From IMG/VR virus record IMGVR_UViG_3300020559_000006: a stretch of 50,037 bases of DNA; one strand, written 5' to 3'. The position numbers were made by a program, and so were the translations under genes. Under the pieces are notes generated by a model. That model had not been told where the DNA came from. It was given only the letters and a program-made list of their open reading frames with translations, and made no database searches. This stretch comes from a virus. Positions 124-49,910 of the stretch are shown piece after piece (within the stretch, counting starts at the first letter, position 1; every line of letters begins with the position of its first letter).

Positions 124-360
124 ATGTCCAGACCTAATGAAGACAAAGTTCGGATTCAATGCCGACTGCCAAAAGACAAAAAAGCAGCCTGGGATAAGGT
201 TTTGATAGAAGCCGGCTTTTTCTTCCGGCAAAAAGAAAATATTTATCCTATGTATGGGGAATTTCTAGAAGCACTGCTAGATCGTGATCCTAGAGCGTCC
301 TCAGTTATTTTGAAAATATCTTCTAAAATAATTGAAAAACCACTTGACAAACTAGAATAA
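124..360 (+). CDS. TIR-encoded small protein, possible ribbon-helix-helix (CopG/Arc-like) regulator
   Basis: 78-aa ORF with a GGAG SD. N-terminal VRIQCRLPKDKKAAWDKVL looks like an RHH beta-strand followed by a helix. Paralogue at 49686..49910. Confidence 0.4.
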   Translation: MSRPNEDKVRIQCRLPKDKKAAWDKVLIEAGFFFRQKENIYPMYGEFLEALLDRDPRASSVILKISSKIIEKPLDKLE

Positions 361-405: not shown

Positions 406-558
406 GTGAAGCTAGTAAAAGTTGAGAACAACTGCCAAATGGAAGCAACTGCAGAATATATAACGCTTGAAGCGATCACTTCAGTTGAAGAAGCAGCCAA
501 AAATGGCTGCACTTGGGCTTTAGCCCAGCTAGAAGAGTGGGGCATAAAGTTTGAATAG
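406..558 (+). CDS. Small ORF (50 aa from GTG 406, or 39 aa from ATG 439)
   Basis: Not in the ORF track (<60 aa). AAGGAAAG lies upstream of the GTG. Its stop sits inside the 64-nt repeat. Confidence 0.3.
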   Translation: MKLVKVENNCQMEATAEYITLEAITSVEEAAKNGCTWALAQLEEWGIKFE

Positions 559-602
559 CCCGCCTGACGAGTCCGGCTGACTACCGGACGAAACTACCAC
601 CT
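539..602 (+). repeat. 64-nt direct repeat, copy 1
   Basis: GGGGCATAAAGTTTGAATAGCCCGCCTGACGAGTCCGGCTGACTACCGGACGAAACTACCACCT is identical to 1754-1817. Confidence 0.95.
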
Positions 603-620
603 CGTTGGGTAGACGAGGTG
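559..620 (+). ncRNA. Hammerhead-like motif, degenerate (predicted inactive)
   Basis: Same CUGACGA core, stem II and GAAA as the 1774 copy. Position 16.1 is A rather than U, and the 3' strand of stem I (GAGGUG) no longer pairs with CCCGC. An alternative 8-bp hairpin CACCUCGU/ACGAGGUG forms at 598-620. Confidence 0.5.
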
Positions 621-650
621 ATTCAAATTGATATAAATGAGGAAGAAAAA

Positions 651-1769
651 ATGTTTAAGATTAATGCTCAGGATTTACACTTTACTATTCAGAAGAAATT
701 AAATAAGATCCTTGGCGGATCTTTAGTTGATGGAATTATTGCAACAGGGATTAACCCTGATGAACTTGACTGGGAAGAAACAGAAATTGAAATTTACGGC
801 AGCATAGATTTTGATTGCGACAGACTATCCCAGTGTGTTTCCTGGGGTGAAGAAAAGCAAGAGCAATTAGAAGTAAAAGATGCTTTGTTGTCTGACATTA
901 AGAATGGGTTTAATAAGTTAGATGACTGGCACAAGTACCAAACAAGAGGTGCTTGGGGCTTCTTCGGTTCAGGTTTATCTTCCGGGATTAGCTACTATAT
1001 ACACGAATTAGACCGTAAATATTGCGGTCAAGTTTTTAAAGCTACCGGACGTGATAAAGAAGTAGCTACTTATGACCAAATGGACGGTTTTGGCTTTGCC
1101 GATTCTGTTGACAAACACGTATACACAAAATATGAATATAAACACTCAGATGGTACTATCATCTGGGTTACTGAAAATAAGAAAACATACACTATTCCTA
1201 CTGAACAGGAAGTAGTGGGGAGAATACAGGTTTTAATTTATGAACACTGCAAAAGAGAAAAAATGACATGGGAACTGTTTGTTAGTGACATTGAAAATCG
1301 AAAACAAAAGAACGCGGCTTTTGATGCTGCAGATTTAGCAGCAAGACAAGCAGCCATAAAAGCGGCTGAGTCCGCCATACCCATGCCTGAGTGGTTTCAG
1401 AAAGAGGTTTATTCCAAGGGCAGCGTCAATCGCTTTTGGATTGGTGATGATTACATTTATTCATTCTGGTGGGACACCCAAGATGGGACAGTGTGGCAAC
1501 AATGTGAAGACCGCACCCGTGGGTTGGCTGAACGCACCAGGAAATCTAAATCCTTGGGTTCAGATAGAGATGAGATTATGAACCATATAAACAGCCTATT
1601 GGCTGAACGCAGACGGGCAAGTGAGTTGCTCGCGCAACAAGAAGAAATTAAGCAGCAACAAGAAAAAAGGTACGACGAGTACAGGCACGATCAGAAGATA
1701 AAGAACGGTGTTGTTAAGCCCTTTGAGAAGTGGCTCAAACAAGAGTCAAGAGAGGGGCATAAAGTTTGA
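651..1769 (+). CDS. Hypothetical protein (372 aa)
   Basis: Long ORF with ATG 651 preceded by GAGGAAG (the track ORF starts at 618). No motif recognised. Flanked by the 64-nt direct repeats. Confidence 0.7.
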   Translation: MFKINAQDLHFTIQKKLNKILGGSLVDGIIATGINPDELDWEETEIEIYGSIDFDCDRLSQCVSWGEEKQEQLEVKDALLSDIKNGFNKLDDWHKYQTRGAWGFFGSGLSSGISYYIHELDRKYCGQVFKATGRDKEVATYDQMDGFGFADSVDKHVYTKYEYKHSDGTIIWVTENKKTYTIPTEQEVVGRIQVLIYEHCKREKMTWELFVSDIENRKQKNAAFDAADLAARQAAIKAAESAIPMPEWFQKEVYSKGSVNRFWIGDDYIYSFWWDTQDGTVWQQCEDRTRGLAERTRKSKSLGSDRDEIMNHINSLLAERRRASELLAQQEEIKQQQEKRYDEYRHDQKIKNGVVKPFEKWLKQESREGHKV

Positions 1770-1817: not shown

Positions 1818-1829
1818 GGTAGTCGTGGG
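1774..1829 (+). ncRNA. Hammerhead self-cleaving ribozyme, stem I open (type I topology)
   Basis: CCCGC | CUGACGA | GUCCGG-CUGACUA-CCGGAC | GAA | ACUACC-ACCU-GGUAGU | C17 | GUGGG. All invariant core positions are present, with G10.1:C11.1 and A15.1:U16.1. Predicted cleavage falls between 1824 and 1825. Confidence 0.8.
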
Positions 1830-1863
1830 AAGTCACAATTTCACCCCACAAGAGGAAATAAAC

Positions 1864-2226
1864 ATGATCTACTCGTTTTTAAGTCAGGAATTTAACCAGA
1901 AGTTAGGGATTAATCCCGACTTTTCCTACGAGAGGGAAAGTCAAGGTAACACCTTTTATTTCTATATCAGGGAAGGTGTCCTCGTAGTTGAGGAATTTGA
2001 ACACTGCTACGACGATAAAGACCTCGTGAAAGAGGTTAAAATCATCCTAAATAAAGGCGACCACATAATCGCTGATTCGGTAGGTGGACTGACCTTGATC
2101 AAGTTGTTCAAAGTCGGTGTTAGGGTTAGTCTGCTTGATTCAGAGTTGGTAGGGTTGCCACTGGAGCAACAGACGGAGGACATAAAAACGGATATTATTT
2201 ATTCACTGGTTTCTTTAGGTGACTAA
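1864..2226 (+). CDS. Hypothetical protein (120 aa)
   Basis: ATG 1864 preceded by AGAGGAAA. The track start at 1825 coincides with the ribozyme cleavage site and is unlikely to be used. Confidence 0.6.
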   Translation: MIYSFLSQEFNQKLGINPDFSYERESQGNTFYFYIREGVLVVEEFEHCYDDKDLVKEVKIILNKGDHIIADSVGGLTLIKLFKVGVRVSLLDSELVGLPLEQQTEDIKTDIIYSLVSLGD

Positions 2227-9071: not shown

Positions 9072-9150
9072 AGGAATAAACCCGCCTCAATGTTATAGGC
9101 ATTTGAATGATTTTTCCCTTAAAAAGCTAGGATTAGATCATCTAAAATTG

Positions 9151-9759
9151 CTATAATCGAATTATCTCATAGAAAAAATTGCCATTATTTTCTGATATCC
9201 ATCCAGAAGATTCGCTATTGTATCTGTGAGCATGGATTTTGTAGCCAGGATTTTTCGTTAATGGTTCAGTAATAAAACTGGGGTCAAACCAGATTATTCG
9301 GTTGTTGGGTTGAATGGCGAAACAACCGTTATCAAGTTTTAAAACATGGCCACATTTATGTTCGCTTGGATCTTCCGCCCAATCTCCACCAACCCAATCA
9401 ATTGTGAACATATACTCACCGTCATACCATTTTCCATCTTTGAGAATGGTTTTACAACGTAGTTCGGAAAGGTAGGAATAGGCGATCGCACATGGCTGAT
9501 AACTCAAGCAATCCCACAATTGCAACCAATCTAATGGTAGTTGCTCGCAATCTTCTCTCCAAGCGAGAGCATGAATTGGGACTCTAGCAAATTGCGCTCC
9601 CTGGTTAGTAACTAAATTAAACCCAACTGCCCGACCAGGAATAGAAGTCATGCCGAATACCCGGACGGGTACGCATCCTGTTTGCTGTAAATCCCAATCA
9701 TAAAGAAATGACTTGTTAATAAAACATTTGAAGTGGGGGATATCTACATTGAAGGTCAT
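9151..9759 (-). CDS. Hypothetical protein (202 aa)
   Basis: ORF in the tail operon; no motif recognised. Confidence 0.55.
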   Translation of the reverse strand: MTFNVDIPHFKCFINKSFLYDWDLQQTGCVPVRVFGMTSIPGRAVGFNLVTNQGAQFARVPIHALAWREDCEQLPLDWLQLWDCLSYQPCAIAYSYLSELRCKTILKDGKWYDGEYMFTIDWVGGDWAEDPSEHKCGHVLKLDNGCFAIQPNNRIIWFDPSFITEPLTKNPGYKIHAHRYNSESSGWISENNGNFFYEIIRL

Positions 9760-9843
9760 GTGCGATCGTAAAATAAAATCACCATTGTAACAACAAAACC
9801 GCCACTTGTGTAGCGGTTGTTGCGACAGTCATACGACTATCCC

Positions 9844-10524
9844 CTAACCCTGCTTTAAATTCATCAAAAATTGATACATGACTTGATTGTGTCTCGCGTC
9901 AGCTAAAGCATTATGCTCACCAGATTCTTGTTTTGGTAGTTCAGGATTACCTAAGTCATCACACAACTGCTTGATGTCTTTTGTGTACATAGGAAATCCA
10001 TTTGGCAATGCAATCATTGCCCCAAATAATTGGCAGAATACGACATGATCGTAATCTGCATAGTAACCCCATATTTCAGGCTTTGCTCTACCAATCCCTA
10101 AGCTGTATTTTGTTTTAGTCTTTGAATGATAAGCAAACACCTGGGTTGCTTGCATTAACCTGATTAGCCAAATTGGAGATTGAGATTGAATTTTTAGTAG
10201 AAATTTATTCCATCCGGTTGGTTTTACTGATTCTACTTCACCATAGCAATAGAAGAAATTAGCAACTTCTTCCGCTATCTCAGCCTTCGTTTTCCATACT
10301 TTTGATTCCTCCCAAAGACGTGGTGAAACCTCAATAGGCAACGGATCTTTGGGAGGTAACTTAGAAATTACATTATTCTTTACCCATTGGGATGCTTTAG
10401 TTAAATCACAATCCCTATTGACGGCATAAAATTCTCTGCCATCCTCGCAGACAATCCCTATAGATATCAATGATATAGTCGTTCCGTCCTCTATAAATTC
10501 TGTGTCTAGAAAATATTTGGTCAT
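9844..10524 (-). CDS. DEDDh 3'-5' exonuclease (DnaQ-like fold)
   Basis: Exo I FLDTEF, Exo II YYADYDHVV, Exo III HNALADARH. Start taken at MTKYFLD. Confidence 0.7.
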   Translation of the reverse strand: MTKYFLDTEFIEDGTTISLISIGIVCEDGREFYAVNRDCDLTKASQWVKNNVISKLPPKDPLPIEVSPRLWEESKVWKTKAEIAEEVANFFYCYGEVESVKPTGWNKFLLKIQSQSPIWLIRLMQATQVFAYHSKTKTKYSLGIGRAKPEIWGYYADYDHVVFCQLFGAMIALPNGFPMYTKDIKQLCDDLGNPELPKQESGEHNALADARHNQVMYQFLMNLKQG

Positions 10525-21737: not shown

Positions 21738-21738
21738 A

Positions 21739-22463: not shown

Positions 22464-22483
22464 TTCAATAAAAGGTAAAAACA

Positions 22484-22928: not shown

Positions 22929-22952
22929 AAAAAAACAACAGGAGACAAAATA

Positions 22953-23270: not shown

Positions 23271-23350
23271 AGTCAAAAAAATATTTTAAAAAAACTTTCC
23301 AAAACCCCTTGACAAATATTTGTTATCCTGATACTATATAAGAGTGAGAG
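23271..23350 (+). promoter_or_regulatory. Early promoter P4
   Basis: -35 at 23309-23314, -10 at 23332-23337; same palindrome. Confidence 0.8.
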
Positions 23351-23369
23351 AAAAAACAGGAAACAAAAA

Positions 23370-24344
23370 ATGAGAGTAGCAGAAATTAACACCACAGAAC
23401 TAAATTTAGACCCCAAAAGATTTCAATACAAACTAGTCCACAATTCAACAGGTGCTACTGGTTCATTATCAGGAATTGACTCCTGGAATATCTATTTGTC
23501 AGGAATTGTATTGGTGTGGGAAGATTTTGGAGACATTTATGTGGTCAATGGTCACAACAGAGTAACCCTGGCCAAAAAGCTGGGGGTTCAAAAAGTTCTC
23601 TGTAGGTTCATTGATGCCTCTACTCATGTAGAAGCTAGGCTAGTAGGTGCACTGGCCAACATTGCAGAGGGTATGGGAACTGCCATTGATGCAGCCAAGT
23701 TTTTTAGAGACTCATCATATACCGTAAAAGACGTAAAAAACTTTGGCATTAATCCCAGGTTAAAAATAGTGCAAGATGGGTTAAGCCTGTCCAATCTGGT
23801 TAGTTTCCTGTTTGATAAGGTTATTACTGGCACTATTCCCATTGATAAGGGTGTGATTTTGGGTAGTGTAGGGACCAGAGAACAGTTGGAAGTCTGGGAA
23901 TTGATTAAGGATAAGCAGGTTAGCACCCCTGCATTGGATGAAATTATCGCAAATATCCTTAACCCTGCAACTGGGCAAATGTCCCTGCTTAACCTCTACA
24001 TAGACAGTGATGATGAGCTAATAAGACTAGAGTTAATTGCCCTGGTAAGGGTCAAGCTACAAAGATCCAAAAAACTATTACACTTAGTCTCAGATAACTC
24101 TCAATTCCTAGAGTCAATAGGAAACAACTTAAATCACACTGGCAACACATCAACTGGTGAGTTAACTCACTATGTGCTACAAATTTTTGACCAGTTAAAA
24201 AATCAGAGTGGACCAGTAAGTGACATTCTCAGTAAAGGTGTCAATGCTATAAAATCAGGTCAATCAATGCCTGATGTGATAACTGTTTGTGTTAATGAAC
24301 TAATCACAGTTATTCCTAGAATGATCAACCAAAAAGTTGCTTAA
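23370..24344 (+). CDS. ParB/Srx-like N-terminal domain protein
   Basis: IYVVNGHNRVTLAKKLGVQKV resembles the ParB box (DGHHR...A..LG). Confidence 0.55.
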   Translation: MRVAEINTTELNLDPKRFQYKLVHNSTGATGSLSGIDSWNIYLSGIVLVWEDFGDIYVVNGHNRVTLAKKLGVQKVLCRFIDASTHVEARLVGALANIAEGMGTAIDAAKFFRDSSYTVKDVKNFGINPRLKIVQDGLSLSNLVSFLFDKVITGTIPIDKGVILGSVGTREQLEVWELIKDKQVSTPALDEIIANILNPATGQMSLLNLYIDSDDELIRLELIALVRVKLQRSKKLLHLVSDNSQFLESIGNNLNHTGNTSTGELTHYVLQIFDQLKNQSGPVSDILSKGVNAIKSGQSMPDVITVCVNELITVIPRMINQKVA

Positions 24345-28270: not shown

Positions 28271-29195
28271 TTATTGCCACTCCTAACTCGGTGCTCATCA
28301 TGTCTACTATCTTTAGAATTACCTGACTCCGATATTGCTGAACCATGCCCTCAGTTGAGATGCCAATTTTGGGTGCAAGTTGGTCAAGTTTAGAGCGAAA
28401 ATTAGCTAAATCACCCTTATCTAAAAAGATAAAAAACTGTGTTTGCTCACCCTTCCCGGTGTAGTTAATTGACTGAACTGCACCAACATCTGTCACATTT
28501 TCAGTTTCAACAATGACCTTTTCCGCAGGTGGTGGAGGTGTGTAATCGCTTCTACTGGGTGTTACGTCAATGGTAGTGCCATCTTCACTCATTTGAGGAT
28601 TTGGGTATTTCTCGTCATCAAAATCGTAACCCGTTTCTTCCTGTTCCTCTTCCGGTTCTTCTTTGCGAACTAGAAAGGCTCGCATAAAACTGTTAGCAGT
28701 TGAAGTATCCCAACCCGCTGTTTTAATCTGTCTTTTGGGCATTTGCGCCAAAATTGCGGCAATTTTACCGGGGTCATCACGTCCATCATGGCTAGTATTG
28801 TTAAGTCGAAGCAGCGCCGACTTTTGGGATAGTTCATCGAGCGTGACGGGAACGACGGGGATAGCAGTCCAATAATTAGCACAAAACCGCTCTCGATGTT
28901 TTTCGGCTACTTTATCTCTCCCCGTCCCTTTGATCCACCGATCCCACTCTTTCAGGAAAAAATCTTCATCCTGTTGGCTTAACCAATCCGCACCCTGAAC
29001 CCTGCCATGTCCTGAGATGAGGTAGCCGAAACTACCGTCTAGGTTTCGCTGAATTGTGGGGTAAATCAACCATCCAAAATCTAGCAAGCTGTCACGAATC
29101 CAAGGCAAATCATTCTCTTCTGAATGTTCGCGGGGATTTTCAGGGTGGAATTTTGCCAATACGCTGGAGATTGGCAATCGTAAAACTTCACTCAT
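28224..29195 (-). CDS. ParB-like N-terminal domain protein (IbrB-like)
   Basis: GYLISGHGRVQGADWL box. Acidic linker and unknown C-terminal half. Confidence 0.55.
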   Translation of the reverse strand: MSEVLRLPISSVLAKFHPENPREHSEENDLPWIRDSLLDFGWLIYPTIQRNLDGSFGYLISGHGRVQGADWLSQQDEDFFLKEWDRWIKGTGRDKVAEKHRERFCANYWTAIPVVPVTLDELSQKSALLRLNNTSHDGRDDPGKIAAILAQMPKRQIKTAGWDTSTANSFMRAFLVRKEEPEEEQEETGYDFDDEKYPNPQMSEDGTTIDVTPSRSDYTPPPPAEKVIVETENVTDVGAVQSINYTGKGEQTQFFIFLDKGDLANFRSKLDQLAPKIGISTEGMVQQYRSQVILKIVDMMSTELGVAINDSTDGAITAENVGF

Positions 29196-30309
29196 TTTTA
29201 GCCTTCTCTACCGCTTGTTGTGAGTGAATCATTGCCTCATGCAGCGATTTTAACGCCGCTTCTACTTGAGGAGAATCGCCACAGGTTTTGATCACCCAAT
29301 CTGCAAGTCCGGTAAACTTGCTGGTAATTTGCCATTGTTGTTGTACTACCGTCATTTGTTTCTTCGATAGATTTATTAAATTATTGATAACATAATTTTT
29401 ACTCCATAGGTAAGCGGTGCTGTGGTCAACTCCCAAATAAGTTTCACACCAATAACTAGATTTACCGTTAGCGATCGCCTCCAATACTTTCACCTTCACA
29501 TCATTAGAATAGCCACGTCTCCCAGTCGGTAACGGGTTTTCTCTGAATTGAGTCTGGCAGGACTTACACAAATAACCCTGTTTTCCGTCACGCTTACCAT
29601 TTTTAATAGTTTGGTAATCTTTGCAATTTGGGCATTGAACCCGCCCTACTGCTATCAACTTTAATTTTCGTAAAGCGTCAGATTCAATTCGGCGCAACTC
29701 CTTCAATTTAATATTATGGATTTGGCACAACATTTTGGCGGGGATATGGGTAATATATAAATCTTTGATGATTGTGGCGTGAAGTTCTGGCAACTTATCA
29801 AGCAGCGGGAGAATTGACTCTGATTCCTCTGCTTGCTCCGTTGTCAACTGTTCGGGTAGTTCAGGATTATTTTGATTGCAAGCTATCGCCGCCTCTTTGG
29901 CAACTTGTAAAGAGATATTTAGTTCAATGGCCGCTTGTTCATAAGTTACGCCATGTTTTTGCGCGTGTCGCTTCAATTTTTGGTGGGTTTCTTGGAGGGG
30001 ACGCGGAACTTTTACCATCCGCGCTTTATCCCTGACAAATTGCGCCATTGCACCATAAATAAACGGCACGGCGTAACTGGAAAGTTTAATTTTCTTAGTA
30101 GGGTCAAACCTCTCCACCGCTTTGATTAATCCCTCCGCCCCAATTTGTATCAGGTCTTCTCTTGGGACTGTGCAGCAAGCGGTCATTTTACCTGCTATAT
30201 GACCGACTAGCCCCATGTTAGTCTCAACTATTTTGTTTCTCAGTCGGATGTCCCTGGTTTGGTGAAAATTAATTAAAAGTTGCTGATTGTCTAAGTATGC
30301 CGCGTCCAT
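29188..30309 (-). CDS. Sigma-70 family factor fused to a C-terminal InsA-like zinc ribbon plus HTH
   Basis: Region 2 DLIQIGAEGLIKAVERFDP...SYAVPFIYGAMAQFVRD, region 3 VKVPRPLQE, region 4 ELRRIESDALRKLK. Then CPNCKDYQTIKNGKRDGKQGYLCKSCQTQF. Confidence 0.85.
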   Translation of the reverse strand: MDAAYLDNQQLLINFHQTRDIRLRNKIVETNMGLVGHIAGKMTACCTVPREDLIQIGAEGLIKAVERFDPTKKIKLSSYAVPFIYGAMAQFVRDKARMVKVPRPLQETHQKLKRHAQKHGVTYEQAAIELNISLQVAKEAAIACNQNNPELPEQLTTEQAEESESILPLLDKLPELHATIIKDLYITHIPAKMLCQIHNIKLKELRRIESDALRKLKLIAVGRVQCPNCKDYQTIKNGKRDGKQGYLCKSCQTQFRENPLPTGRRGYSNDVKVKVLEAIANGKSSYWCETYLGVDHSTAYLWSKNYVINNLINLSKKQMTVVQQQWQITSKFTGLADWVIKTCGDSPQVEAALKSLHEAMIHSQQAVEKAKNE

Positions 30310-30695
30310 TTATCCCAAATTTAGTAATAACTTTTAAATTACCCAGTCCTGGCGTGTTTGTCACTGACCCCGAAACAGGAAACCCTGTGCAAACTACAAC
30401 TGATGTAGTAGTACAAGCATGGATGGAGGGTAACGCCGCAGTTAAACCCGAACCAGGGCAAAACCCAAATGTAGTTAACTTGCGCGGGTATGCTGTAAAA
30501 CCCCGATTACTGCCAACTGAGTTGATCCGTAAACAGTCGGAAGCATCAGCCGTTTATGTTGACCCATTGACGGGGAATGAGCAAACGGGGAAATTTACGC
30601 TACAACCGCAGTTTGACGGAAAACGCCCCAGAGTTACAAAGGCTTTAGCCCGTGCTTTGGGGTCTGAATTACAAGGTACTTTTGAGTTTAGTTGA
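30297..30695 (+). CDS. Hypothetical protein (start uncertain)
   Basis: 132-aa ORF whose ATG overlaps the sigma gene start head-to-head by 13 nt. Confidence 0.4.
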   Translation: MPRPFIPNLVITFKLPSPGVFVTDPETGNPVQTTTDVVVQAWMEGNAAVKPEPGQNPNVVNLRGYAVKPRLLPTELIRKQSEASAVYVDPLTGNEQTGKFTLQPQFDGKRPRVTKALARALGSELQGTFEFS

Positions 30696-30879
30696 ACATT
30701 AAAAGCACCCTTTGAGGCGCTTTATTCACAAGGTGGAGAAATTCTTGCCTTACCTAATGGACATAAATTTTTTGACTCTTAACTTTACAACAAGCAGGGC
30801 ATTTTACACCCTCCAAATCTTCCCGTTCCGTACAAATTTTGATTTGAGAATTTACTACATCTTCATTTAAATAAAGCAT

Positions 30880-30912
30880 AAAAAATGGGGTGATAGTTCA
30901 CCCCATTTTTTT
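30880..30912. terminator. Bidirectional rho-independent terminator
   Basis: AAAAAA-TGGGGTGA-TAGT-TCACCCCA-TTTTTTT between convergent genes. Confidence 0.8.
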
Positions 30913-30968
30913 AACCTACTTTCATGCTTTTCTTGAATTTACTAGCATTAGTACAGGTTGTTAGTTGG

Positions 30969-31226
30969 TTAGTAAGGGGCGTTTTGAATCAACCATTGAA
31001 TGTCCCCCTCATAGAGTTCCTGGTCTTCAGAGAACTCATTAACAAGATGACAAGCTTTGACAGCTTCACCTAGCAATTGTTTTGTTTGGCTCTGATCAGA
31101 CATCCAAAATGTCCAGTTTTTTTGATTACCTAATTCAACCATTTTTGCAAAAATTTCTTTTGCATATTCACACACTTTAGACCCCCATATCCAAGCACAT
31201 ATTAAATCAATTTCTACATTTTTCAT
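30969..31226 (-). CDS. Early protein, unknown function (85 aa)
   Basis: ATG 31226 after AAAGG, downstream of P5. Confidence 0.65.
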   Translation of the reverse strand: MKNVEIDLICAWIWGSKVCEYAKEIFAKMVELGNQKNWTFWMSDQSQTKQLLGEAVKACHLVNEFSEDQELYEGDIQWLIQNAPY

Positions 31227-31247
31227 GGTTTTACCTTTATTTCTCAA

Positions 31248-31330
31248 CTCTCACTCTTATATAGTAACAGGATAACAAATATTTGTCAAGGGGTTTTGGA
31301 AAGTTTTTTTAAAATATTTTTTTGATGACT
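31248..31330 (-). promoter_or_regulatory. Early promoter P5 (minus strand)
   Basis: -35 at 31289..31284, -10 at 31266..31261. Nearly identical to P1-P4, including the upstream element. Confidence 0.8.
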
Positions 31331-31354
31331 AAAAAACCCTCAAAATAGAGGGTT
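31331..31354 (-). terminator. Terminator of the repeated terminator-promoter unit
   Basis: The minus strand reads AACCCTC-TATTTT-GAGGGTT-TTTTT, 8 nt after the stop of 31362..31568. Confidence 0.7.
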
Positions 31355-31361
31355 ATATGCG

Positions 31362-31568
31362 TTATTCACCTTGTTTTTCTTTCTTCAATTTTGCCCGCTT
31401 TAGTCGCATATACTCTCTCATGTACTCTCGTTTGGCATCCTTGCGTTCGCGGTCTAATTCGCGTTCACGTTCCCTGACTTCAGGCTTCTGGCGATATTTC
31501 TTCCTCCGTGCCTTACCTTTTTCAGATCTTTCGTAATTCCATTGAGCTTTTCTTAAATTCTCGTCCAT
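31362..31568 (-). CDS. Highly basic coiled-coil-like small protein (68 aa)
   Basis: KARRKKYRQKPEVRERERELDRERKDAKREYMREYMRLKRAKLKKEK. Driven by P6. Confidence 0.6.
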   Translation of the reverse strand: MDENLRKAQWNYERSEKGKARRKKYRQKPEVRERERELDRERKDAKREYMREYMRLKRAKLKKEKQGE

Positions 31569-31648
31569 CGTGTTATACTCCTAATATTCCTGTTGAACTC
31601 TCACAATTTTCGCAGAGAAGACATAGCACCCCTCATGAGGGGTGCTAT
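31553..31648. repeat. ~95-bp direct repeat, copy A
   Basis: Covers the first 5 codons and 5' leader of 31362..31568 plus the 26-nt palindrome 31623-31648. About 85% identical to 33445-33542. Confidence 0.85.
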
Positions 31649-31675
31649 TGGTTTAGGGTTTCACTGTTTTTGACC

Positions 31676-31740
31676 TCTCTACATTTATATAGTAACAGCC
31701 TAACAAATATTCGTCAAGGGGGTTTTGGAAAGTTTTTCAA
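31676..31740 (-). promoter_or_regulatory. Early promoter P6 (diverged family member, TTGACG-17-TACTAT)
   Basis: -35 at 31717..31712, -10 at 31694..31689. The palindrome is degenerate (ACGAATATTTGT). Confidence 0.65.
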
Positions 31741-31778
31741 ATCAGGGGAAAGCTTGCTAAAACAGGATAAATATCAGT

Positions 31779-33047
31779 ATGGGCAAAGCGTTAGAGGTTT
31801 TTGAAAAAACCTGTAAAAAAGGTAAAGCTTGCGGAAATGCTTGTATTTCCGCGCTTAGAAATTGTGCAAAGAAAACCGGAGAATCCACTAAAAAGACCGG
31901 AGAATCCACTAAAAAGACCGGAGAATCCACTAAAAAGACCGGAGAATCCACTAAAAAGACCGGAGAATCCACCAAGGAAACCGGGGAATCCACTAAAAAG
32001 ACCGGAGAATCCACTAAAAAGACCGGAGAATCCACTAAAAAGACCGGGGAATCCACTAAGAAAACTGGGGAGTCTGCTAAAAAACTGGGGAGTCTACTAA
32101 AAAAAACTGGGGGGTCTACTCAACCCACTAAAACCACACTTGTATCATACAAAGCCGATTCTTCGGATCATAAGGCTTTGATGAACATAGGCAAGGATTT
32201 TTCTGATCAAACTATGGGGAAAGCACTAAAAGCATTACAAGATGCTCAAGCTGAGAAAAAGAATTTCTTTATGGACATAGAGAGGAATAACAAGAAAACC
32301 AAACAAGGAAAATGGTTCAAAAAAGATGAAAAACACGCAGCAAAATTGGATGAGAAAATGTTACTTGCCCAGAAAGAGCTTGAAGCGGCCGCAGAGGGAA
32401 CGTTACAGAAATTAAAAGCCCATCATAAAATTGATAGAGAAGATGCAGAAAAATGGGCTAATTCACTTGTTTCTGACAAATTCACGCTCACAGGTAAAGA
32501 CAGGGAAACAACTTTGACTGCTTTAGCGGATGTTTATATGATAACAGGCGGCATGGGTGCGACAGAACTAAAAAAAGTAGTAAGTACCGATACAAATAGA
32601 GCCTTTGCAGATCCATACACTGGAGAACTAACTTTAGAAAGTAAGGGTCTAAAGATTCTTGGCAAAGAATTATCTCCAGAGGCTGAAAGTAGCCTTACTT
32701 CTCGTCGTGAGACAGTGTTCCACGAATACGCGCATTTTTCGGAATTTGAGAATAAGCAATTGGCTGTCGCGTCAAGAAAATTCATTGAAGATCGGGCTAC
32801 GTCGTCTGAGCTTATGAAAATAAATGATATAACTGGATTCAGCGGATACAGAGATAATGAGATGGCAATCCCAGACAACTTTATAGACCCCTATGTAGGG
32901 AAGATATATGGTCCTTCGGGTACTTGGACTGAGGTTGTTTCGATGGGAGTTGAAAGCTTTAAAACTCCCTTTCAGATGGCTTCCTTTTACAGGCGAGATC
33001 CAGAGCATTTTAATTTTATCTTAGGAGCGATTTTACATGAAAATTAA
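31779..33047 (+). CDS. Repeat protein: 12 x KKTGEST heptads plus a C-terminal HExxH (zincin-like) domain
   Basis: 422-aa ORF. CGNACISALRNC, then the heptad array, then VFHEYAHFSEF (HEYAH at 32721-32735). Confidence 0.6.
   Translation: MGKALEVFEKTCKKGKACGNACISALRNCAKKTGESTKKTGESTKKTGESTKKTGESTKKTGESTKETGESTKKTGESTKKTGESTKKTGESTKKTGESAKKLGSLLKKTGGSTQPTKTTLVSYKADSSDHKALMNIGKDFSDQTMGKALKALQDAQAEKKNFFMDIERNNKKTKQGKWFKKDEKHAAKLDEKMLLAQKELEAAAEGTLQKLKAHHKIDREDAEKWANSLVSDKFTLTGKDRETTLTALADVYMITGGMGATELKKVVSTDTNRAFADPYTGELTLESKGLKILGKELSPEAESSLTSRRETVFHEYAHFSEFENKQLAVASRKFIEDRATSSELMKINDITGFSGYRDNEMAIPDNFIDPYVGKIYGPSGTWTEVVSMGVESFKTPFQMASFYRRDPEHFNFILGAILHEN
31869..32120 (+). repeat. 21-bp tandem repeat x12 (in-frame, coding)
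   Basis: AAAAAGACCGGAGAATCCACT units; the last three are degenerate. Confidence 0.95.
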
Positions 33048-33435
33048 ACTTGAATATTGCCCGTTTGGTGACATAGGCAAAAAAGAATTTACTTTAGCAA
33101 GTGTTGAAGTTGAGACGGAACATAATGATCCTTTCGAGTTCATTAATCCTGTTGTAAAAGTTCAAAGTTACCCAGCAGCAAGCGACCAAAAAAACAAGCT
33201 GAAAGCCGCCGCAGAAAAAGTAAGTGTCAGACAAAGCATAGAGAAAAGGGCTTTAGACGCTTGGGAAAGAGAGCTTGAGGTTTCGCGTGGATATCAGGGG
33301 CATTCTTATTCCCCGAATAATCTAGACCTGTCGCACGCTGTTTATAACTTGCCTTCTTTTAAGGTTTTGAGTATAGAAGGCAATGAAGACTTTAAAAGTA
33401 AACTCCCGCGTATTCCGAAAGGAGCGGTTTCATGA
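33037..33435 (+). CDS. Hypothetical protein (132 aa)
   Basis: Start overlaps the upstream stop region. Second gene of the repeat-bounded cassette. Confidence 0.5.
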   Translation: MKIKLEYCPFGDIGKKEFTLASVEVETEHNDPFEFINPVVKVQSYPAASDQKNKLKAAAEKVSVRQSIEKRALDAWERELEVSRGYQGHSYSPNNLDLSHAVYNLPSFKVLSIEGNEDFKSKLPRIPKGAVS

Positions 33436-33444
33436 GCAGGTGTT

Positions 33445-33542
33445 TTAAATTCTCGTCCATTGTGTGTTATCCTTGTTTTATTCCTGTTGAACTCTCACAA
33501 ATTTCGCAGAGAAGACATAGCACCCCTTGATGAGGTGCTATG
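33445..33542. repeat. ~95-bp direct repeat, copy B
   Basis: Contains a remnant MDENL start (22-codon ORF on the minus strand) and the 11-bp stem hairpin at 33514-33544. Confidence 0.85.
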
Positions 33543-33577
33543 TCTATATTTAGGGAAAACTCCCAAAAAATCTTATA

Positions 33578-35068
33578 ATGCCATCCTGGGGAACATTACT
33601 AAGCCTTGAATCCACGATACAGCAAGCCTTGGCGGTAGAATCACAAGGTGAGAGTAAGATCACGCTGTTTGAAGAATTTGAGCCTAATCCTGGCGGACAA
33701 ACACGGTTTTTAGAGATAGCTGGCTGGGATAGCACCAACGATTTACCGCAGAGATGGACAGGCTTGCTTGGGGGTATAGGCGGGGGCAAAAGTTTCGCTG
33801 GTGCAATTTGGGCGTGTTCCCGTGCCTTACTCGCACCTGACGCTAGAGGTATGATCAGCGCAAATAGCTACGGGCAATTGAGTAGAGCCACACTTCTGGC
33901 ATTGGTCGAAGTTTGCCGGATGTTCAATATCCCCCTTGAACCTTGGCGTGAGTCGGCAGAAGATCAGGCATTAGCGATCGCCAATTGTCAACGCTGCTAT
34001 ATCGGACCGGATCGGGCGTTCGTTTACGTTCTGTCAGCGTCAGCTTTTAGTGGTTCAACTCAAGCGGGGCGCGGTTTACAAATCCGGTGGTTTTGGGGAG
34101 ACGAGTTTGCATATACGCCGGAAAAGGCATTTTTAACAATTGATGGAAGATTGGGGCGTGGTCCAGGTACGCTCAAAGGTCAAGGAATATTAACCACGTC
34201 ACCAGCCGGATATAACTATCTGTGGGATAAATTTGGAGATCCGACACGCAGCGACGACTTAAGACGGATTTACCAAATTGTTTCAATGTCGTCACTGGAA
34301 AATAAAAAATATTTAGGGGAGGATTATGTAGCTTCACTAGAGGCAAACTATAGCGATGAACTGTACCAACAGGAAGTTATGGGGCAGTTCATCAACACGG
34401 TACAGGGTTTAATTTACAAATACTTTGACCGCACCAAACACTCGTTCCAGGATGAAGATGCCGAACTACTGGAATATGACCCGAATCTCCCTCTGCTGCT
34501 AACCTTTGACTTTAACCACACGCCTATAGTTTGTTTAGCAGCCCAAAAACGCGGGAACGAAATTCACTTTTGCAAAGAGTGGTTTATGATGGACTCCGAT
34601 ATTTGGGAACTGACGGAAAGTATTGTGGATTGGGTGGAGAAATACGGCATCCCCCCAGAAATACAAATATTTGGGGATGCCACCGGACGCGCTAGAACTG
34701 CGGCTAGTCGGTTAAGTAGTTGGGATATCGTGTTTCAGGGCTTAGAACCACTAGCCGCAATGCGTGGCAAAGGTTATTTGGTTCGGAAATTTGCAGATGC
34801 CAACCCATTTGTTGTGAATCGGGTCCATTCTGTCAATCAATTGTTCCGCCAAAATCGCTGTTATGTCCACTTTGCGAATTGCCAAAACTTTATCAAGGAT
34901 TTGGAACAGGTGACGTGGAGTGATGAGGGTATCAATAAAAACGATAACCCGCTACTCTCTCACCTGAGTGATGCAGCGGGTTATCTGATTCACAGTATTT
35001 ATCCGTTTAAGAAGGAAACCAGGGAACGGAAAACTGGTAAACGTAAAATTAGCGGACTCGCAGGTTGA
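33578..35068 (+). CDS. terL: Terminase large subunit
   Basis: Walker A LLGGIGGGKSFAG, Walker B WFWGDEFAY. Nuclease motifs LLTFDFNH, IFGDATGRA and LSHLSDAAGY. Confidence 0.9.
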   Translation: MPSWGTLLSLESTIQQALAVESQGESKITLFEEFEPNPGGQTRFLEIAGWDSTNDLPQRWTGLLGGIGGGKSFAGAIWACSRALLAPDARGMISANSYGQLSRATLLALVEVCRMFNIPLEPWRESAEDQALAIANCQRCYIGPDRAFVYVLSASAFSGSTQAGRGLQIRWFWGDEFAYTPEKAFLTIDGRLGRGPGTLKGQGILTTSPAGYNYLWDKFGDPTRSDDLRRIYQIVSMSSLENKKYLGEDYVASLEANYSDELYQQEVMGQFINTVQGLIYKYFDRTKHSFQDEDAELLEYDPNLPLLLTFDFNHTPIVCLAAQKRGNEIHFCKEWFMMDSDIWELTESIVDWVEKYGIPPEIQIFGDATGRARTAASRLSSWDIVFQGLEPLAAMRGKGYLVRKFADANPFVVNRVHSVNQLFRQNRCYVHFANCQNFIKDLEQVTWSDEGINKNDNPLLSHLSDAAGYLIHSIYPFKKETRERKTGKRKISGLAG

Positions 35069-35085
35069 GATACCTAATGGCGAAA

Positions 35086-35436
35086 TTACTCCCAATCAGT
35101 AACGTCAACATCAATGATCTCTGTCTTGTTCTTTGTCAAAAAGCTACCAATGCGGTAACTTATTTTGTGCTTAAGAACGATAAGAAAGTAGAAAGTCCCC
35201 CTAAAATTAAACAAAAAAGCATAAGATACTGCATCTATGACAGACACTATAAATGATTTAGGCATTAAGTTCTGGTAGCAGTAGTCCGTATAAACGTCTA
35301 CCATCTCCAAAGTAGAGTATGTGTCGTATTGTGGGAATTGACGCTTACATTCATCTTCCCACGCTCCAAATGCTTTCATAGGTTCATAAGTAAAAGCATA
35401 CCGGAGATACCACCAGCCGAACTTCATTCTTTCCAT
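35086..35436 (-). CDS. Hypothetical protein (117 aa from MERMKF)
   Basis: ATG 35436 after AAGGA. The track start at 35490 is a GTG inside the upstream small ORF. Confidence 0.5.
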   Translation of the reverse strand: MERMKFGWWYLRYAFTYEPMKAFGAWEDECKRQFPQYDTYSTLEMVDVYTDYCYQNLMPKSFIVSVIDAVSYAFLFNFRGTFYFLIVLKHKISYRIGSFLTKNKTEIIDVDVTDWE

Positions 35437-35440
35437 TGTT

Positions 35441-35569
35441 TTAATCCTTACATTTTCCTTTTTTAATGCAATCTCCTGTTTGATCGTCACGGGCTGCTAT
35501 TGTGGGATTAGCAATATTGAGAATTGTTAAGATTGCTATTAATGCGATCACGATCTGTTTTAATTTCAT
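35441..35569 (-). CDS. 42-aa pre-peptide with signal sequence (not in the ORF track)
   Basis: MKLKQIVIALIAILTILNIANPTIAARDDQTGDCIKKGKCKD. AGGAG lies 6 nt upstream of the ATG. Confidence 0.45.
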   Translation of the reverse strand: MKLKQIVIALIAILTILNIANPTIAARDDQTGDCIKKGKCKD

Positions 35570-35655
35570 GGTCACTCCTGGTGATAGGGGTAGGTTTTGC
35601 TTGGCGGCTGCCTTCCCTTTTGAATTGAATAGTTTTATGTCATCGCGGACGGGTT

Positions 35656-35922
35656 TTAGAAAGAATCGGGATCGAATTTTTTGTCTTCTGTTGATTTGAA
35701 ATTTTTGATTAGATCCAATGTAAATACGGCAATATTCGCTTTGTGCTTATGGCTTTTCCCTCTTTCACGTATTGCTACTAGCAGCGGCAAGATTTGTACC
35801 TCCAGGGGTGGTGGAATTAAAAGTTTTGTCATTTCAGTAAATAAAACTTCAATTTCCCAGTGAGTAAATTTACCGTCGCTATTTTTAGCAATTTTTTCAA
35901 GCCAAAATTCTAAAGATTCCAT
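35656..35922 (-). CDS. Hypothetical protein (88 aa)
   Basis: ORF directly after ssb. Confidence 0.5.
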   Translation of the reverse strand: MESLEFWLEKIAKNSDGKFTHWEIEVLFTEMTKLLIPPPLEVQILPLLVAIRERGKSHKHKANIAVFTLDLIKNFKSTEDKKFDPDSF

Positions 35923-35923
35923 T

Positions 35924-36550
35924 TTAAAAGTCCTCCTGTTCTTGTTCTTTCTTGCCCCCTAAAAGCTCTAATTCTCCAACTAAAATTACGGGTTTTGACC
36001 GTAATTCGCCTGTGCTTTTATCCGTCCATTCCTCAAATTTTATTTGTCCAAGAATGCCGATTAATCCGCCCTTGCGGACATAATTGCCCATCACCTCACC
36101 AGTCTTACCCCACGCTTCTAAATCAAACCAATCTGTCTGTGATGTGCGACGGACGGCTAAAGAGCATGATGTTTTGTTAGTACCAGACTCAAAATACCTG
36201 ACTTCTGGATCACGCCCTACCCGTCCTGCAATGCTGACAGAATTAACGTTTACCGGACTAGAAACCATGTCTAAAGCACTGATTTTAAACTCAGTTACTT
36301 TGGTTTTAGTGCCGTTACTTTCTTTGCTGATAATGTTGATTGCACCAACCAAGACAATAGCTTGATTCTCATCAAGTTGCGCTATTAATTCAGCTAATTT
36401 GCCAAATCCCACACACTTAATCTGTTTGACAGACTCCGATTTACTAGCATTTTGAAATGCTAGTAAGAACTCAGACATAGGTTTGTTGTCATGGCTATAT
36501 CTAAGTTGTGGAGGGGATGAAATGATGCCCGATAAAACTGCGTTATTCAT
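35924..36550 (-). CDS. ssb: Single-stranded DNA-binding protein with two OB folds
   Basis: Second half VSIAGRVGRDPEVRYFESGTNKTSCSLAV...WFDLEAWGK. First half LSGIISSPPQLRY... Acidic tip EQEQEDF. Confidence 0.8.
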   Translation of the reverse strand: MNNAVLSGIISSPPQLRYSHDNKPMSEFLLAFQNASKSESVKQIKCVGFGKLAELIAQLDENQAIVLVGAINIISKESNGTKTKVTEFKISALDMVSSPVNVNSVSIAGRVGRDPEVRYFESGTNKTSCSLAVRRTSQTDWFDLEAWGKTGEVMGNYVRKGGLIGILGQIKFEEWTDKSTGELRSKPVILVGELELLGGKKEQEQEDF

Positions 36551-36923: not shown

Positions 36924-37628
36924 TTACGCAACCTCTGTTAAAACTTTAGGAAACTCACCTCTTAACACTTGTTGCCATTTTTGAACCGATGTTAAATCAG
37001 GGGATTTAACATTTTCTGTATAAGAATGAAGTGCCTGAAATTCATCCACGCCCTGAGAAATTGCCCAGTCAATGCACATATCTTTAATGAGTTGTTCAGC
37101 AGACTCTAGCTCTTTAATTGATGGAACTTGATAACTGGACAGCCAATTTATAACCCAGGCTTTCTCAACTTTCAGAAATTCCCTGATTTGCTTAATGGCA
37201 TTGCCAATGGACAATTGTCTGCTGTTGACTGATTGTCTGCTGTTGTAGGTTTTCTGTGCGGTTTTATCATCCTTTGCGCTATTTGCATCGTCATCTTCAT
37301 CAGCCGTGATTGATAACAAAGCACAAACAGTATAGCGGCGGGCATAAGTCAAAGCCGCCCCTTTCTTTTGGCTATCCTGAATATCAGGAAGCTCATATTC
37401 ACTGGTCAAAAATTCTCCTGACTCATGAAACAAATGAGTTTTTAATATGCTCCCTTTCTCCATGACTTGGACAATTGCCAATCCATGTTTACAAAGCACT
37501 GGAGTAACAGCGTCTAGAACTGAATCTAGAGATGCATAGGACACTTTAAAATGTGGATTGATTTTGTCTTTTTGTATGGACGGGAACTCAGCCCGTGCTT
37601 TTATCAATGCCTTAATTAGTTCAATCAT
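36924..37628 (-). CDS. erf: ERF-family single-strand annealing recombinase
   Basis: FKVSYASLDSVLDAV...HESGEF...KKGAALTYARRYTVCALLSITADEDDDANS. Confidence 0.8.
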   Translation of the reverse strand: MIELIKALIKARAEFPSIQKDKINPHFKVSYASLDSVLDAVTPVLCKHGLAIVQVMEKGSILKTHLFHESGEFLTSEYELPDIQDSQKKGAALTYARRYTVCALLSITADEDDDANSAKDDKTAQKTYNSRQSVNSRQLSIGNAIKQIREFLKVEKAWVINWLSSYQVPSIKELESAEQLIKDMCIDWAISQGVDEFQALHSYTENVKSPDLTSVQKWQQVLRGEFPKVLTEVA

Positions 37629-39658: not shown

Positions 39659-39984
39659 GATTGTTGCGCCTCGTAGCTAATGTTGTGATACCCAGTCCAG
39701 GAAACTACTGGGATTTTGGCAATTAGATCCCCTACATCGGCGTAGGGTCTGCCGTCTCGAACTTCCCTGGATTGGGCTGTTGTCAATCCCAACTTTTCTG
39801 ATAAATCTTTGATTGATGCGGAATTGATTTTAATTAGTTCCGCGCTGGGTTCTGTGGGTGCGGGTTGTGGTACAGGCTTTGGTTCATCGGGGGCGGTGAT
39901 TCTGTACCCCATCGCCAAGAAGTTGTTCACCTGCATTTCATGGACTTGAACCCCTTGCCCATCTGGAGAAAAGAGGATAGGCAT
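39655..39984 (-). CDS. Small protein with ComEA-like helix-hairpin-helix motif
   Basis: INSASIKDLSEKLGLTTAQSREVRDGRPYADVGDL. Directly downstream of the capsid gene. Confidence 0.45.
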   Translation of the reverse strand: MPILFSPDGQGVQVHEMQVNNFLAMGYRITAPDEPKPVPQPAPTEPSAELIKINSASIKDLSEKLGLTTAQSREVRDGRPYADVGDLIAKIPVVSWTGYHNISYEAQQS

Positions 39985-49660: not shown

Positions 49661-49699
49661 ACTCTACTAGACTTATTCCAATTTGTCAAGGGGTGTCAA
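49661..49699 (-). promoter_or_regulatory. Inward-facing right-arm promoter (TTGACA-17-TAGAGT) with duplicated -35
   Basis: -35 at 49689..49684, with a second CCCCTTGACA copy at 49699..49694; -10 at 49666..49661. Drives the FGE-like gene. Confidence 0.55.
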
Positions 49700-49910
49700 G
49701 GGGTTTTTTAGAAAATATTTTCAGGATAACCGATAATGCTCTAGGATCACCATCTAGCAGTGCTTCTAGAAATTCCCCATACATAGGATAAATGTTTTCT
49801 TTTTGCCGAAAGAAAAAGCCGCCATCTATCAGCAGCTTGTCCCAGAGTGCTTTCTTGTCTTTTGGCAGTCGGCATTGAATCCGAACTTTGTCTTCATTAG
49901 GTCTGGACAT
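49686..49910 (-). CDS. TIR-encoded small protein, second copy (possible RHH regulator)
   Basis: 74 aa, about 88% identical to 124..360, with a different C-terminus. Confidence 0.4.
   Translation of the reverse strand: MSRPNEDKVRIQCRLPKDKKALWDKLLIDGGFFFRQKENIYPMYGEFLEALLDGDPRALSVILKIFSKKPLDTP

Follow-up and report, generated by a model that had tools for sequence, protein, structure and literature searches.

Mobile regulatory cassettes known as PeSL (promoter-early stem-loop) have been described in T4-like phages, where promoter/terminator modules serve as portable homology (Arbiol et al. 2010, PMC2839356; Comeau et al. 2014, PMC4122927). The locus analysed here, which resembles them in part, is the region upstream of terL, the large terminase gene, in the viral genome IMG/VR IMGVR_UViG_3300020559_000006 (50,037 nucleotides (nt); 'the window' denotes this whole stretch of DNA). 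It contains two imperfect direct repeats, copy A at the start of a small minus-strand gene (g68) and copy B just before terL, with two plus-strand genes encoding proteins of 422 and 132 amino acids (aa) between them. The interpretation put forward here, to which we assign a probability of roughly 0.75, is that copy B would be the scar of one old illegitimate join beside terL, which spreads by ordinary homologous recombination. The finding at the terL joint is ordinary phage gene shuffling, not a mobile two-gene cassette, but the locus is an unusually well-resolved instance of phage mosaicism, in which a single illegitimate joint is legible to the base and traceable through a natural cyanophage population.

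Comparisons rest on about 30 related loci (numbered with an L prefix) retrieved by TerL-based and protein-identity look-ups. As with PeSL, this phage group has repeated motifs of ~100 nt in which a putative terminator stem-loop and an AT-rich tract are combined with a strong sigma-70-like promoter, and in which a Shine-Dalgarno sequence and start codon are included. These adjoin ORFans, they bound indels between near-identical genomes (a single motif in the window corresponds to two around an ORFan in L005) and they are occasionally found inside conserved modules at plastic loci. There are, however, differences. The phage is a siphovirus-like cyanophage of Anabaena/Dolichospermum rather than a T4-like myovirus, the repeat consists of a hairpin, a leader and part of a gene start, its promoter being lost in the window, and the founding event would have been an illegitimate join inside two coding starts rather than a clean exchange between two PeSL. 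Excised mini-circles with one chimeric motif are a further trait of PeSL. No T4-like core gene was found in the gene content of the window (~50 kb, with tape-measure, tail J/L-type proteins and ERF), and PeSL-like working would therefore extend to a different phage group, with promoter/terminator modules acting as portable homology also in a siphovirus-like phage that is unrelated to T4 and belongs to bloom-forming Nostocales.

Two further bodies of work are relevant. Juhala and co-workers, in 2000, and Hendrix and colleagues are said to have described mosaic 'novel joints' and morons in lambdoid and other tailed phages. As in novel joints, the illegitimate joint discussed below lies at a gene boundary and then spreads by homologous recombination in its flanks, but it falls a few codons inside two genes, both fragments of which are still visible. 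As with morons, extra genes with their own promoter and terminator stand between genes that are adjacent in relatives, except that the small genes inserted here lie on the strand opposite to the interrupted operon. De Paepe and co-workers reportedly described, in 2014, how single-strand annealing proteins of phages (Rad52-like, ERF) carry out homologous recombination of a relaxed kind. This phage likewise encodes ERF (36924..37628) and SSB (35924..36550), and the exchanges seen are between sequences 84-92% identical, over homologies of ~70-100 nt. Relaxed recombination would be a plausible enabling mechanism and nothing more; the ERF-family annealing protein and SSB would be plausible drivers of recombination at homologies of ~100 nt.

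The joint upstream of terL

Six relatives (L005, L006, L008, L009, L035 and L036) are without copy B. Here the stop codon of the 132-aa gene overlaps the start codon of terL (ATGA), terL begins ATGAGCGGGTGGGGAAC (MSGWGT), and copy A is kept upstream of the 422-aa gene or, in L009, elsewhere in the genome. Relative to this overlap arrangement, the window has gained 146 nt, inserted directly behind base 11 of the older start of terL. With slashes at the joints, the window reads ...TCATGAGCAGGTG / TTTTAAATTCTCGTCCAT ... CTTATAATGCCATCCTG / GGGAAC..., as opposed to ATGAGCGGGTG/GGGAAC in L005, L006 and L009. The insertion consists, in order, of six antisense codons of g68, its leader, the hairpin, a block of 5' untranslated region (5'UTR) beginning TTTAGGGAAAACTCCCAAAAA... 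and a new terL start (MPSW). This block is unique within the window and is the terL 5'UTR in those relatives that have copy B together with extra small genes. The old start codon at 33432 and the new one at 33578 are 146 nt apart, and the window without 33443-33588 would read ATGAGCAGGTGGGG..., with the ATGA overlap restored. The first 11 nt left in place (ATGAGCAGGTG) are a genuine terL start because terL of the outgroup L010 begins ATGGCGGGATGG (MAGW). Since the MSGW remnant is a real terL start, the overlap arrangement came first and the joint is derived. A preliminary description of the window had seen in this region the footprint of an illegitimate recombination event beside terL, which the remnant and the alignment of the joint with relatives support.

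The same left joint is found in all genomes of the copy-B type (the window, L001-L004, L032, L025, L026, L034 and L037-L040), as well as in copies borne by hosts (see below), in differing backgrounds, and we therefore infer that it arose once, long ago. In L034 and L037-L040 the joint has mutated to ATAGTCAGGTG, destroying the old ATG. In principle the polarity could be reversed, with the copy-B junction ancestral and the overlap arrangement produced by a deletion between ...TG ends (ATGAGCAGGTG / ATGCCATCCTG). Each flank does have a terminal TG at a distance of exactly 11 nt from an ATG, so that a deletion by microhomology would leave terL in frame, and the joint is widespread. However, the 11-nt remnant resembles the MAGW start of the L010 outgroup, hence a terL start before the join, and the overlap arrangement is shared by several lineages that have diverged from one another (their cas2 is 78-96% identical in nt to that of the window), for which reversed polarity would need repeated identical deletions or spread by recombination. 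We regard it as decidedly improbable.

The copy-B type comes in several versions. Besides the window, ten related contigs have the joint, seven of which bear one or two small minus-strand genes at this place, one of the seven with a TnpB in addition. The minimal version is that of the window, of the identical contigs L001-L004, and of L032. L034 and L037-L040 have one additional small gene after the hairpin (92 aa, minus strand) with its own TTGACA-17-TACTAT promoter, and L026 has two (70 and 104 aa, minus strand), with three hairpins and with two units that each comprise a promoter, the terL 5'UTR and the first 18 nt of terL. In L025, and there only, an IS605-type TnpB (OrfB_IS605 + Cas12f1-like TNB; 6657-7883) stands between the 132-aa gene and terL in addition to small genes. 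Each of the extra cassettes in L026, L034 and L025 carries a hairpin and a promoter. Wherever copy-B relatives have such extra genes, the intergenic region before terL shows homology over its whole length to the one before the 422-aa gene, the shared parts being the promoter on the minus strand, the tract upstream of it and ...TTTTTCA..TAGGGAAA.CT...AAAAC.... A different arrangement is seen in the distant L015 (terL 76% and g68 46% aa identity), where the promoter, hairpin, leader box and g68 are directly divergent from a terL starting MPNW, and neither the 422-aa nor the 132-aa gene is present within the 13.4 kb of contig examined.

The simplest scenario that accommodates these arrangements is one in which two alternative regions upstream of terL were fused by a single illegitimate crossover between collinear, co-infecting relatives. 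The first parent would have had the 422-aa and 132-aa genes running into terL with the ATGA overlap, and the second g68 and its intergenic region directly beside terL. A crossover joining base 11 of terL in the first to codon 6 of g68 in the second would have broken the overlap and given terL a new 5'UTR and start codon; with such breakpoints, the module between them would therefore have been duplicated and every gene kept. The promoter part of copy B would have been lost later in the window, probably by deletion between the TAGGG after the hairpin and the TAGGG of the 5'UTR, which would yield exactly the present sequence.

What has happened since can be followed in the relatives. Between 30937 and 36565, the window and L005 are identical save for a 497-nt indel (~31282) and a divergent patch at ~32440-33940, within which the 5' part of the window terL is 90.7-90.8% identical to genomes of the copy-B type, versus 87.2% to L005. 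As shown by comparison of the relatives, the junction variant moves between phages by homologous recombination through the flanking genes, the module at the junction is overwritten by leader alleles from other lineages, and the junction has served, in relatives, as a landing site for small promoter-gene-terminator cassettes and TnpB. Several points nevertheless weigh against the interpretation as a whole. No donor with a closely similar arrangement of g68 beside terL was found among the relatives, L015 being distant, and the comparison fits transfer of the patch to L005 as well as to the window. Moreover, neither the leader box nor the stable hairpin, whose stem pairs are compensated, has been lost from any version of copy B, which could mean selection for function rather than neutrality, this hairpin being a predicted terminator or attenuator.

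Searches beyond these loci added little. A DNA search with 30000-36000 gave no match among GenBank phages (50,697 records), where TerL has matches only at <26% aa identity. A metagenome scan for the junction pattern returned one relevant match, identical to the window, and six chance ones, a leader-box scan of the genome collection returned none, and a viral-contig scan for the terL 5'UTR block returned near-identical contigs only. The coordinates of the features discussed are collected in Table 1.

Table 1. Features at and around the terL joint, with positions in the window
Feature	Position	Strand	Remarks
terL, large terminase (Terminase_6N, E 8e-17)	33578..35068	+	first ~360 nt in divergent patch
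ATGAGCAGGTG, first 11 nt of older terL start (MSGW-type)	33432..33442	+	ends at putative illegitimate joint
Retained alternative terL 5'UTR block TTTAGGGAAAACTCCCAAAAA... and new terL start (MPSW...)	33549..33580	+	homologous to terL upstream region of L026 and L034 and to upstream region of 422-aa gene
Repeat copy B	33443..33541	-	six codons of a g68 allele, leader, hairpin; no upstream promoter in window
Open reading frame remnant of copy B, MDENLKHLLMKPLLSEYAGVYF*, 22 codons	33392..33460	-	antisense to 3' end of 132-aa gene
Hairpin B	33514..33544		stem lengthened to 12-14 bp; -21.0 (+) / -23.7 (-) kcal/mol, z -5.2 / -6.1
Recombination patch, 1.5 kb	32440..33940		centred on joint; from mismatch histogram and per-segment identities vs L005
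Repeat copy A	31553..31648	-	g68 codons 1-5, AGGAG Shine-Dalgarno, leader box CCTGTTGAACTCTCACAA (+ strand), hairpin; working copy
Hairpin A, perfect 26-nt palindrome	31623..31648	-	between promoter and g68; terminator-like on minus strand; -19.4 kcal/mol, z -4.8
g68, 68 aa, very basic (MDENL...), ORFan	31362..31568	-	5' end within copy A; 79-100% nt identity in relatives
Sigma-70-type promoter TTGACG-17-TACTAT facing g68	31717..31689	-	one of six-member promoter/terminator family
Composite of terminator stem-loop, AT-rich tract, TTGACA-17-TACTAT promoter and 92-aa gene leader	31248..31366	-	endpoint of 497-nt indel vs L005/L002
422-aa gene	31779..33047	+	Cys-rich N-terminus, 11 x KKTGEST, coiled coil, C-terminal domain HExxHxxE...PYxGK...TE
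132-aa gene, clade-specific ORFan	33037..33435	+	stop overlaps terL start (ATGA) in relatives without copy B
Second direct repeat pair	533..605 and 1748-1820	+	97% over 73 nt; flanks open reading frame 618..1769; last codons, stop codon, downstream hairpin

The repeats as probable alleles of one module

The two repeats were aligned by BLAST of the window against itself, copy A (31553-31648) and copy B (33445-33541) being 86.9% identical over 99 columns (E 8e-25). An ungapped search resolves the pair into a 64-nt block (91%) and a 21-nt block (95%). The preliminary description, which had put the identity at ~85%, proved accurate in several respects. The end of copy B is at 33541. The repeat does correspond to the first codons, leader and palindrome of g68, with codons 1-5/6, a Shine-Dalgarno sequence, the leader and a 26-nt palindrome in copy A. 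Copy B does keep a remnant of 22 codons, the minus-strand open reading frame (ORF) MDENLKHLLMKPLLSEYAGVYF*. This ORF is not conserved, being reduced to four codons in L034. The sequence of copy A is identical in the window, L002, L005 and L026.

Copy B might be thought to have been duplicated from copy A within one genome, by slippage or by ectopic copying, and to have decayed to 87% since, as the two have the same orientation in the same genome, 1.9 kb apart. However, the differences between them are not those of random decay. Copy B is identical at 83/84 nt to the working copy A leader of L034/L037, from which it differs solely in the hairpin loop, as compared with 84% to the window copy A in the same alignment. 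In addition, the terL 5'UTR and start codon to which copy B is attached are different ones, and the combinations of alleles at the two sites are reshuffled among genomes. Numbering the leader alleles in the order A/B, the window has 1/2, L026 has 1/3 and L034 has 2/3. A duplication within the genome is thus extremely improbable, and the occurrence of three alleles in differing combinations implies that the module has been exchanged between loci and between phages. Both repeat copies would be alleles of one regulatory module, made of the first codons of g68, a ribosome-binding leader and a conserved hairpin, that normally appears to reside in a divergent intergenic region adjoining a strongly conserved sigma-70-type promoter.

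Within this module, the leader box is near-invariant in all A and B copies, next to flanking genes that are 73-90% identical. Folding predicts stable hairpins for either strand, at -19.4 to -20.8 kcal/mol in A and at -21.0 to -23.7 kcal/mol in B, with z between -3.3 and -6.1. Nine variants of the hairpin keep the stem, with compensatory changes at two to three pairs, while the loop varies in sequence and length. The loop of hairpin B, CCTTGATGA (33522-33536), is the reverse complement, at 8/9 positions, of the loop TCGTCAAGG in copy A of L034/L037 (L034 ~3595-3610), which indicates an inversion between the arms of the hairpin. In L026 and L034, the minus-strand hairpin lies directly 3' of small genes and has good U-rich tails, as opposed to the weak ones of the window (GUCUUCUCUG / UAUAUUUA). 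Because of its position 3' of small minus-strand genes and the U-rich tracts in relatives, the hairpin is best read as a candidate terminator or attenuator. In L015, as in copy A of the window, it separates g68 from the promoter, so that it may also modulate the expression of g68. No Rfam match was obtained for 31000-34000 at E<=1.

Is copy B then more than a scar? It could be a selected functional element, either by setting the 132-aa gene apart from terL as a (possibly bidirectional) terminator or insulator, or through a leader box and hairpin serving as a binding or processing site. This is a tentative possibility that we consider unlikely overall. The stability of the hairpin on both strands, greater in B (-23.7) than in A (-19.4 kcal/mol), would fit such a role, as would the compensatory changes among the nine variants, a leader box so little changed beside diverging genes, and the placement of the hairpin in relatives directly 3' of small minus-strand genes and before U-rich tracts. 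However, six relatives do without copy B, its remnant ORF is not conserved, and no promoter feeds the minus strand at this point in the window. Conservation would be explained equally well by repeated conversion from copy A alleles, and variation in the sequence and length of the loop argues against a specific protein-binding site. If copy B is active now, its most likely role would be that of a hairpin between cistrons by which the expression of terL is uncoupled from, or attenuated against, that of the 132-aa gene. A scar remains the preferred reading.

The module also calls to mind nutL and N of phage lambda, where a gene for a small arginine- and lysine-rich protein is accompanied by a box and hairpin after the early promoter, a second copy of which lies elsewhere. 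Here too, a small basic gene has a conserved box and hairpin downstream of its promoter, and a second box and hairpin are found elsewhere in the genome. A reading of the lambda N/nut kind was nevertheless rejected as the main explanation, as the hairpin loop is conserved neither in sequence nor in length, copy B is without a promoter and there is no homology to N.

The two genes between the repeats

According to the preliminary description, the two plus-strand genes were foreign cargo and the repeats the boundaries of an acquired cassette. Part of the evidence is in line with this. Homologues of the 132-aa protein are confined to a narrow clade, L015 has g68 beside terL without the cassette genes (13.4 kb examined), and relative to an L015-like genome everything from the 422-aa gene to base 11 of terL, plus one copy of the module, is extra DNA. 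L015 is, however, a distant genome, and the cargo reading is weakened by the six relatives without copy B, which carry both genes with a single repeat and a stop/start overlap with terL. It follows that the inserted piece is the 146 nt of copy B and not the pair of genes. The guanine-plus-cytosine (GC) content of the segment (0.38-0.44) is like that of the rest of the genome, the cassette has no terminal inverted repeats, recombinase or transposase, and the near-twin L005 differs by a homologous patch and not by presence or absence of a cassette. Acquisition as foreign cargo is therefore improbable. Insertion of a transposon, insertion sequence or miniature inverted-repeat transposable element with target-site duplication was ruled out separately. 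The repeats, at 97 nt, include a gene start, inverted ends are missing and neither gene has a transposase domain. Target duplications made by transposons are short (2-14 bp). Considered as a moron, the pair is missing, its flanks being adjacent, from the distant L015 alone, has no detected plus-strand promoter, shows a GC content of 0.38-0.44 and is coupled to terL by ATGA in six relatives. The two genes should be annotated as probable long-standing partners of terL in this clade rather than as recent foreign cargo.

For the 422-aa protein a zincin-type metallopeptidase was considered, a class marked by HExxH with a third zinc ligand and by the zincin fold. H315, E316, H319 and E322 are invariant in 20 homologues, as is PYxGK...TE, and the homologues are almost confined to the phage clade. 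Its gene contains 11 tandem 21-nt units, and the resulting KKTGEST array (31875-32103) varies in copy number among relatives, whose homologues range from 271 to 435 aa, some without the array. The predicted model is of high confidence across most of the C-terminal part (predicted local distance difference test, pLDDT, >90). No match was found in Pfam, NCBIfam, PADLOC or the PDB, where sequence and fold searches gave coiled-coil noise. With Foldseek against BFVD, the 422-aa model matches uncharacterised phage proteins only (best E 3e-15), plus one weak 'lethal factor' match (E 0.05), and the 132-aa protein yielded no family in Pfam, PHROGs, NCBIfam, PADLOC or PDB searches, PHROGs of unknown function being the only ones obtained for either protein in that library.

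The 132-aa protein is under purifying selection, the ratio of non-synonymous to synonymous substitution rates (dN/dS) of its gene being 0.2-0.5. Its predicted model is of low confidence (pLDDT 59), and an exhaustive profile search returned one full-length cluster and a few weak partial matches without a family, none of them to TerS. The position of the gene and its ATGA overlap with terL in six relatives would suit a small terminase, an assignment that is unproven and that nothing else supports.

Some rearrangements in this neighbourhood were noted in passing. In L010, the C-terminal domain of the 422-aa protein has a homologue downstream of terL on the opposite strand, and the DNA directly upstream of terL (~9670-9900) appears, by eye alone, to encode the C-terminal part of a transposase. 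L009 (IMGVR_UViG_3300042561_001716) has a terL of 856 aa (8765-11335) with an intein in the Walker A loop (GGIG/C...HN/SGKSF; Pfam Intein_splicing, E 4e-12), antisense to which, within the intein region, is an ORF of 273 aa with NUMOD1/HTH domains and an HNH-like motif (9072..9893, minus strand).

Promoters and a recurring composite element

The promoter situated between the repeats (P6 in the preliminary description) exists along with the two plus-strand genes, but it lies on the minus strand and drives g68, not the cassette. At 31717..31689, it is the sole site of sigma-70-type consensus between the repeat copies, pointing away from the 422-aa and 132-aa genes. A promoter scan revealed no plus-strand sigma-70 promoter for these genes or for terL. 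TATAAT at 33574-33579 was rejected as a terL promoter, as it overlaps the ATG of terL and therefore cannot serve it. As for the product of g68, no informative family match was found in Pfam, PHROGs, NCBIfam or PADLOC, PHROGs of unknown function being the best obtained.

This promoter belongs to a composite element of ~100 nt present six times in the window (21704-21819, 22398-22487, 22848-22959, 23265-23373, 31248-31366 and 31660-31745). The element consists of an AT-rich tract, a TTGACA-17-TACTAT promoter, a leader and a start codon, and the -35, spacer and -10 are invariant in an alignment of all six copies. Four of the six have an upstream stem-loop, whereas the hairpin of the g68 module is found downstream of the -10, the module being the leader-and-hairpin side of the element at 31660-31745. 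A clean indel illustrates how such elements take part in gene content changes. L005 (385-808) and L002 (5847-6270) have an extra 497-nt cassette between two promoter elements, with an ORFan of <=134 aa (L005 435..839, minus strand), at the place where the window has a single element (~31282, within 31248-31320). The idea of a recurrent mode of gene acquisition, raised in the preliminary description, is supported to this extent, gain and loss at repeated regulatory elements recurring in this phage group.

Genome setting and the second repeat pair

The window has inverted terminal repeats of ~400 bp (1-393 versus 50037-49640, 90% identity) and is therefore probably a complete linear genome. Each of the terminal repeats encodes a small inward-pointing ORF (124..360, plus strand; 49686..49910, minus strand). 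Inverted terminal repeats together with a TerL-type terminase are an unusual combination. Besides the tape-measure protein, ERF and SSB, the gene content includes lambda-J/L-like tail proteins and a sigma factor of its own. The latter, a sigma-70-family protein with regions 2 and 4 and a C-terminal Zn-ribbon/helix-turn-helix extension (29188..30309, minus strand), has a gene start that overlaps divergently with a conserved ORF of 132 aa (30297..30695, plus strand), and this pair is found in either orientation to terL in relatives.

The signature of cargo between direct repeats had also been claimed for 539-1817. There is indeed a repeat pair at 533-605/1748-1820, 97% identical over 73 nt, but no empty site was found for it. 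The scan of viral contigs gave near-identical contigs only, and a search for relatives of the adjacent gene 1825..2226 led to the same two contigs. The genes upstream of these repeats read into them in different frames (...EEWGIKFE* versus ...REGHKV*).

Giant spacers in host arrays

Ordinary spacers from CRISPR arrays of Anabaena/Dolichospermum type match the window at 1873-1904 (32/32), 23415-23443 (27/29), 23535-23564 (28/30) and 39837-39871 (32/35), and the phage is therefore linked to hosts of this type. Host arrays also contain spacers of an altogether different size. Those of 498, 522 and ~757 nt carry the last ~37-42 codons of the 422-aa gene, an intact 132/135-aa gene and the joint, and correspond to 32975-33447 of the window at 89.6% identity. 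The arrays have 37-nt repeats of two unrelated families, and the assemblies in question, from Anabaena, Dolichospermum and Cuspidothrix, number at least six.

The 498-nt spacer is present in Anabaena sp. FACHB-1391 (JACJQS010000032.1; L024 5914-6411) and in Dolichospermum planctonicum NIES-80 (NZ_BJCF01000050.1; L045 4652-5149). The two are orthologous, occupying the same array position next to an identical repeat and spacer, and yet the giant spacers themselves are only 87% identical, each being nearest to a different phage allele. The 522-nt spacer (L047 3914-4435 = L048 1441-1962; JGI 3300046777 / metagenome-assembled genome (MAG) GCA_041164905.1) has the same left end, its right end lying 24 nt further into copy B. 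The ~757-nt spacer, in Cuspidothrix issatschenkoi CHARLIE-1 (NZ_PGEM01000178.1; L046 5901-6657), belongs to the other repeat family, and a Cuspidothrix MAG has a related copy that is cut by the contig end, no CRISPR repeat being visible (L049 1-403). A literature search retrieved no description matching oversize CRISPR spacers of this kind.

These spacers suggest yet another way of looking at the locus. Hosts might capture whole small phage genes and keep them in CRISPR arrays, either as expressed proteins (decoy or immunity) or as long recombination traps, refreshed by infecting phages, in which case the hot spot between the 132-aa gene and terL, copy B included, would partly be the phage-side trace of this process. 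We find this rather doubtful, and a single old join, later spread by homologous recombination, is still favoured for copy B. Giant spacers that carry an intact 132-aa gene are, however, a more surprising lead than the terL joint itself and deserve a follow-up of their own.

Oversize spacers are not confined to this part of the phage. A 290-nt spacer in the array that holds the 522-nt one (L048 2870-3159 = L047 5343-5632) is 84% and 80% identical to the two inverted terminal repeats (103-388 and 49645-49935 in the window) and holds an intact homologue of their 74-78-aa ORF. Another, of 273 nt (L047 3530-3802), encodes an ORF of 60 aa and has no match in the window. The ORFs of all the oversize spacers are intact and lie in the sense of array transcription.

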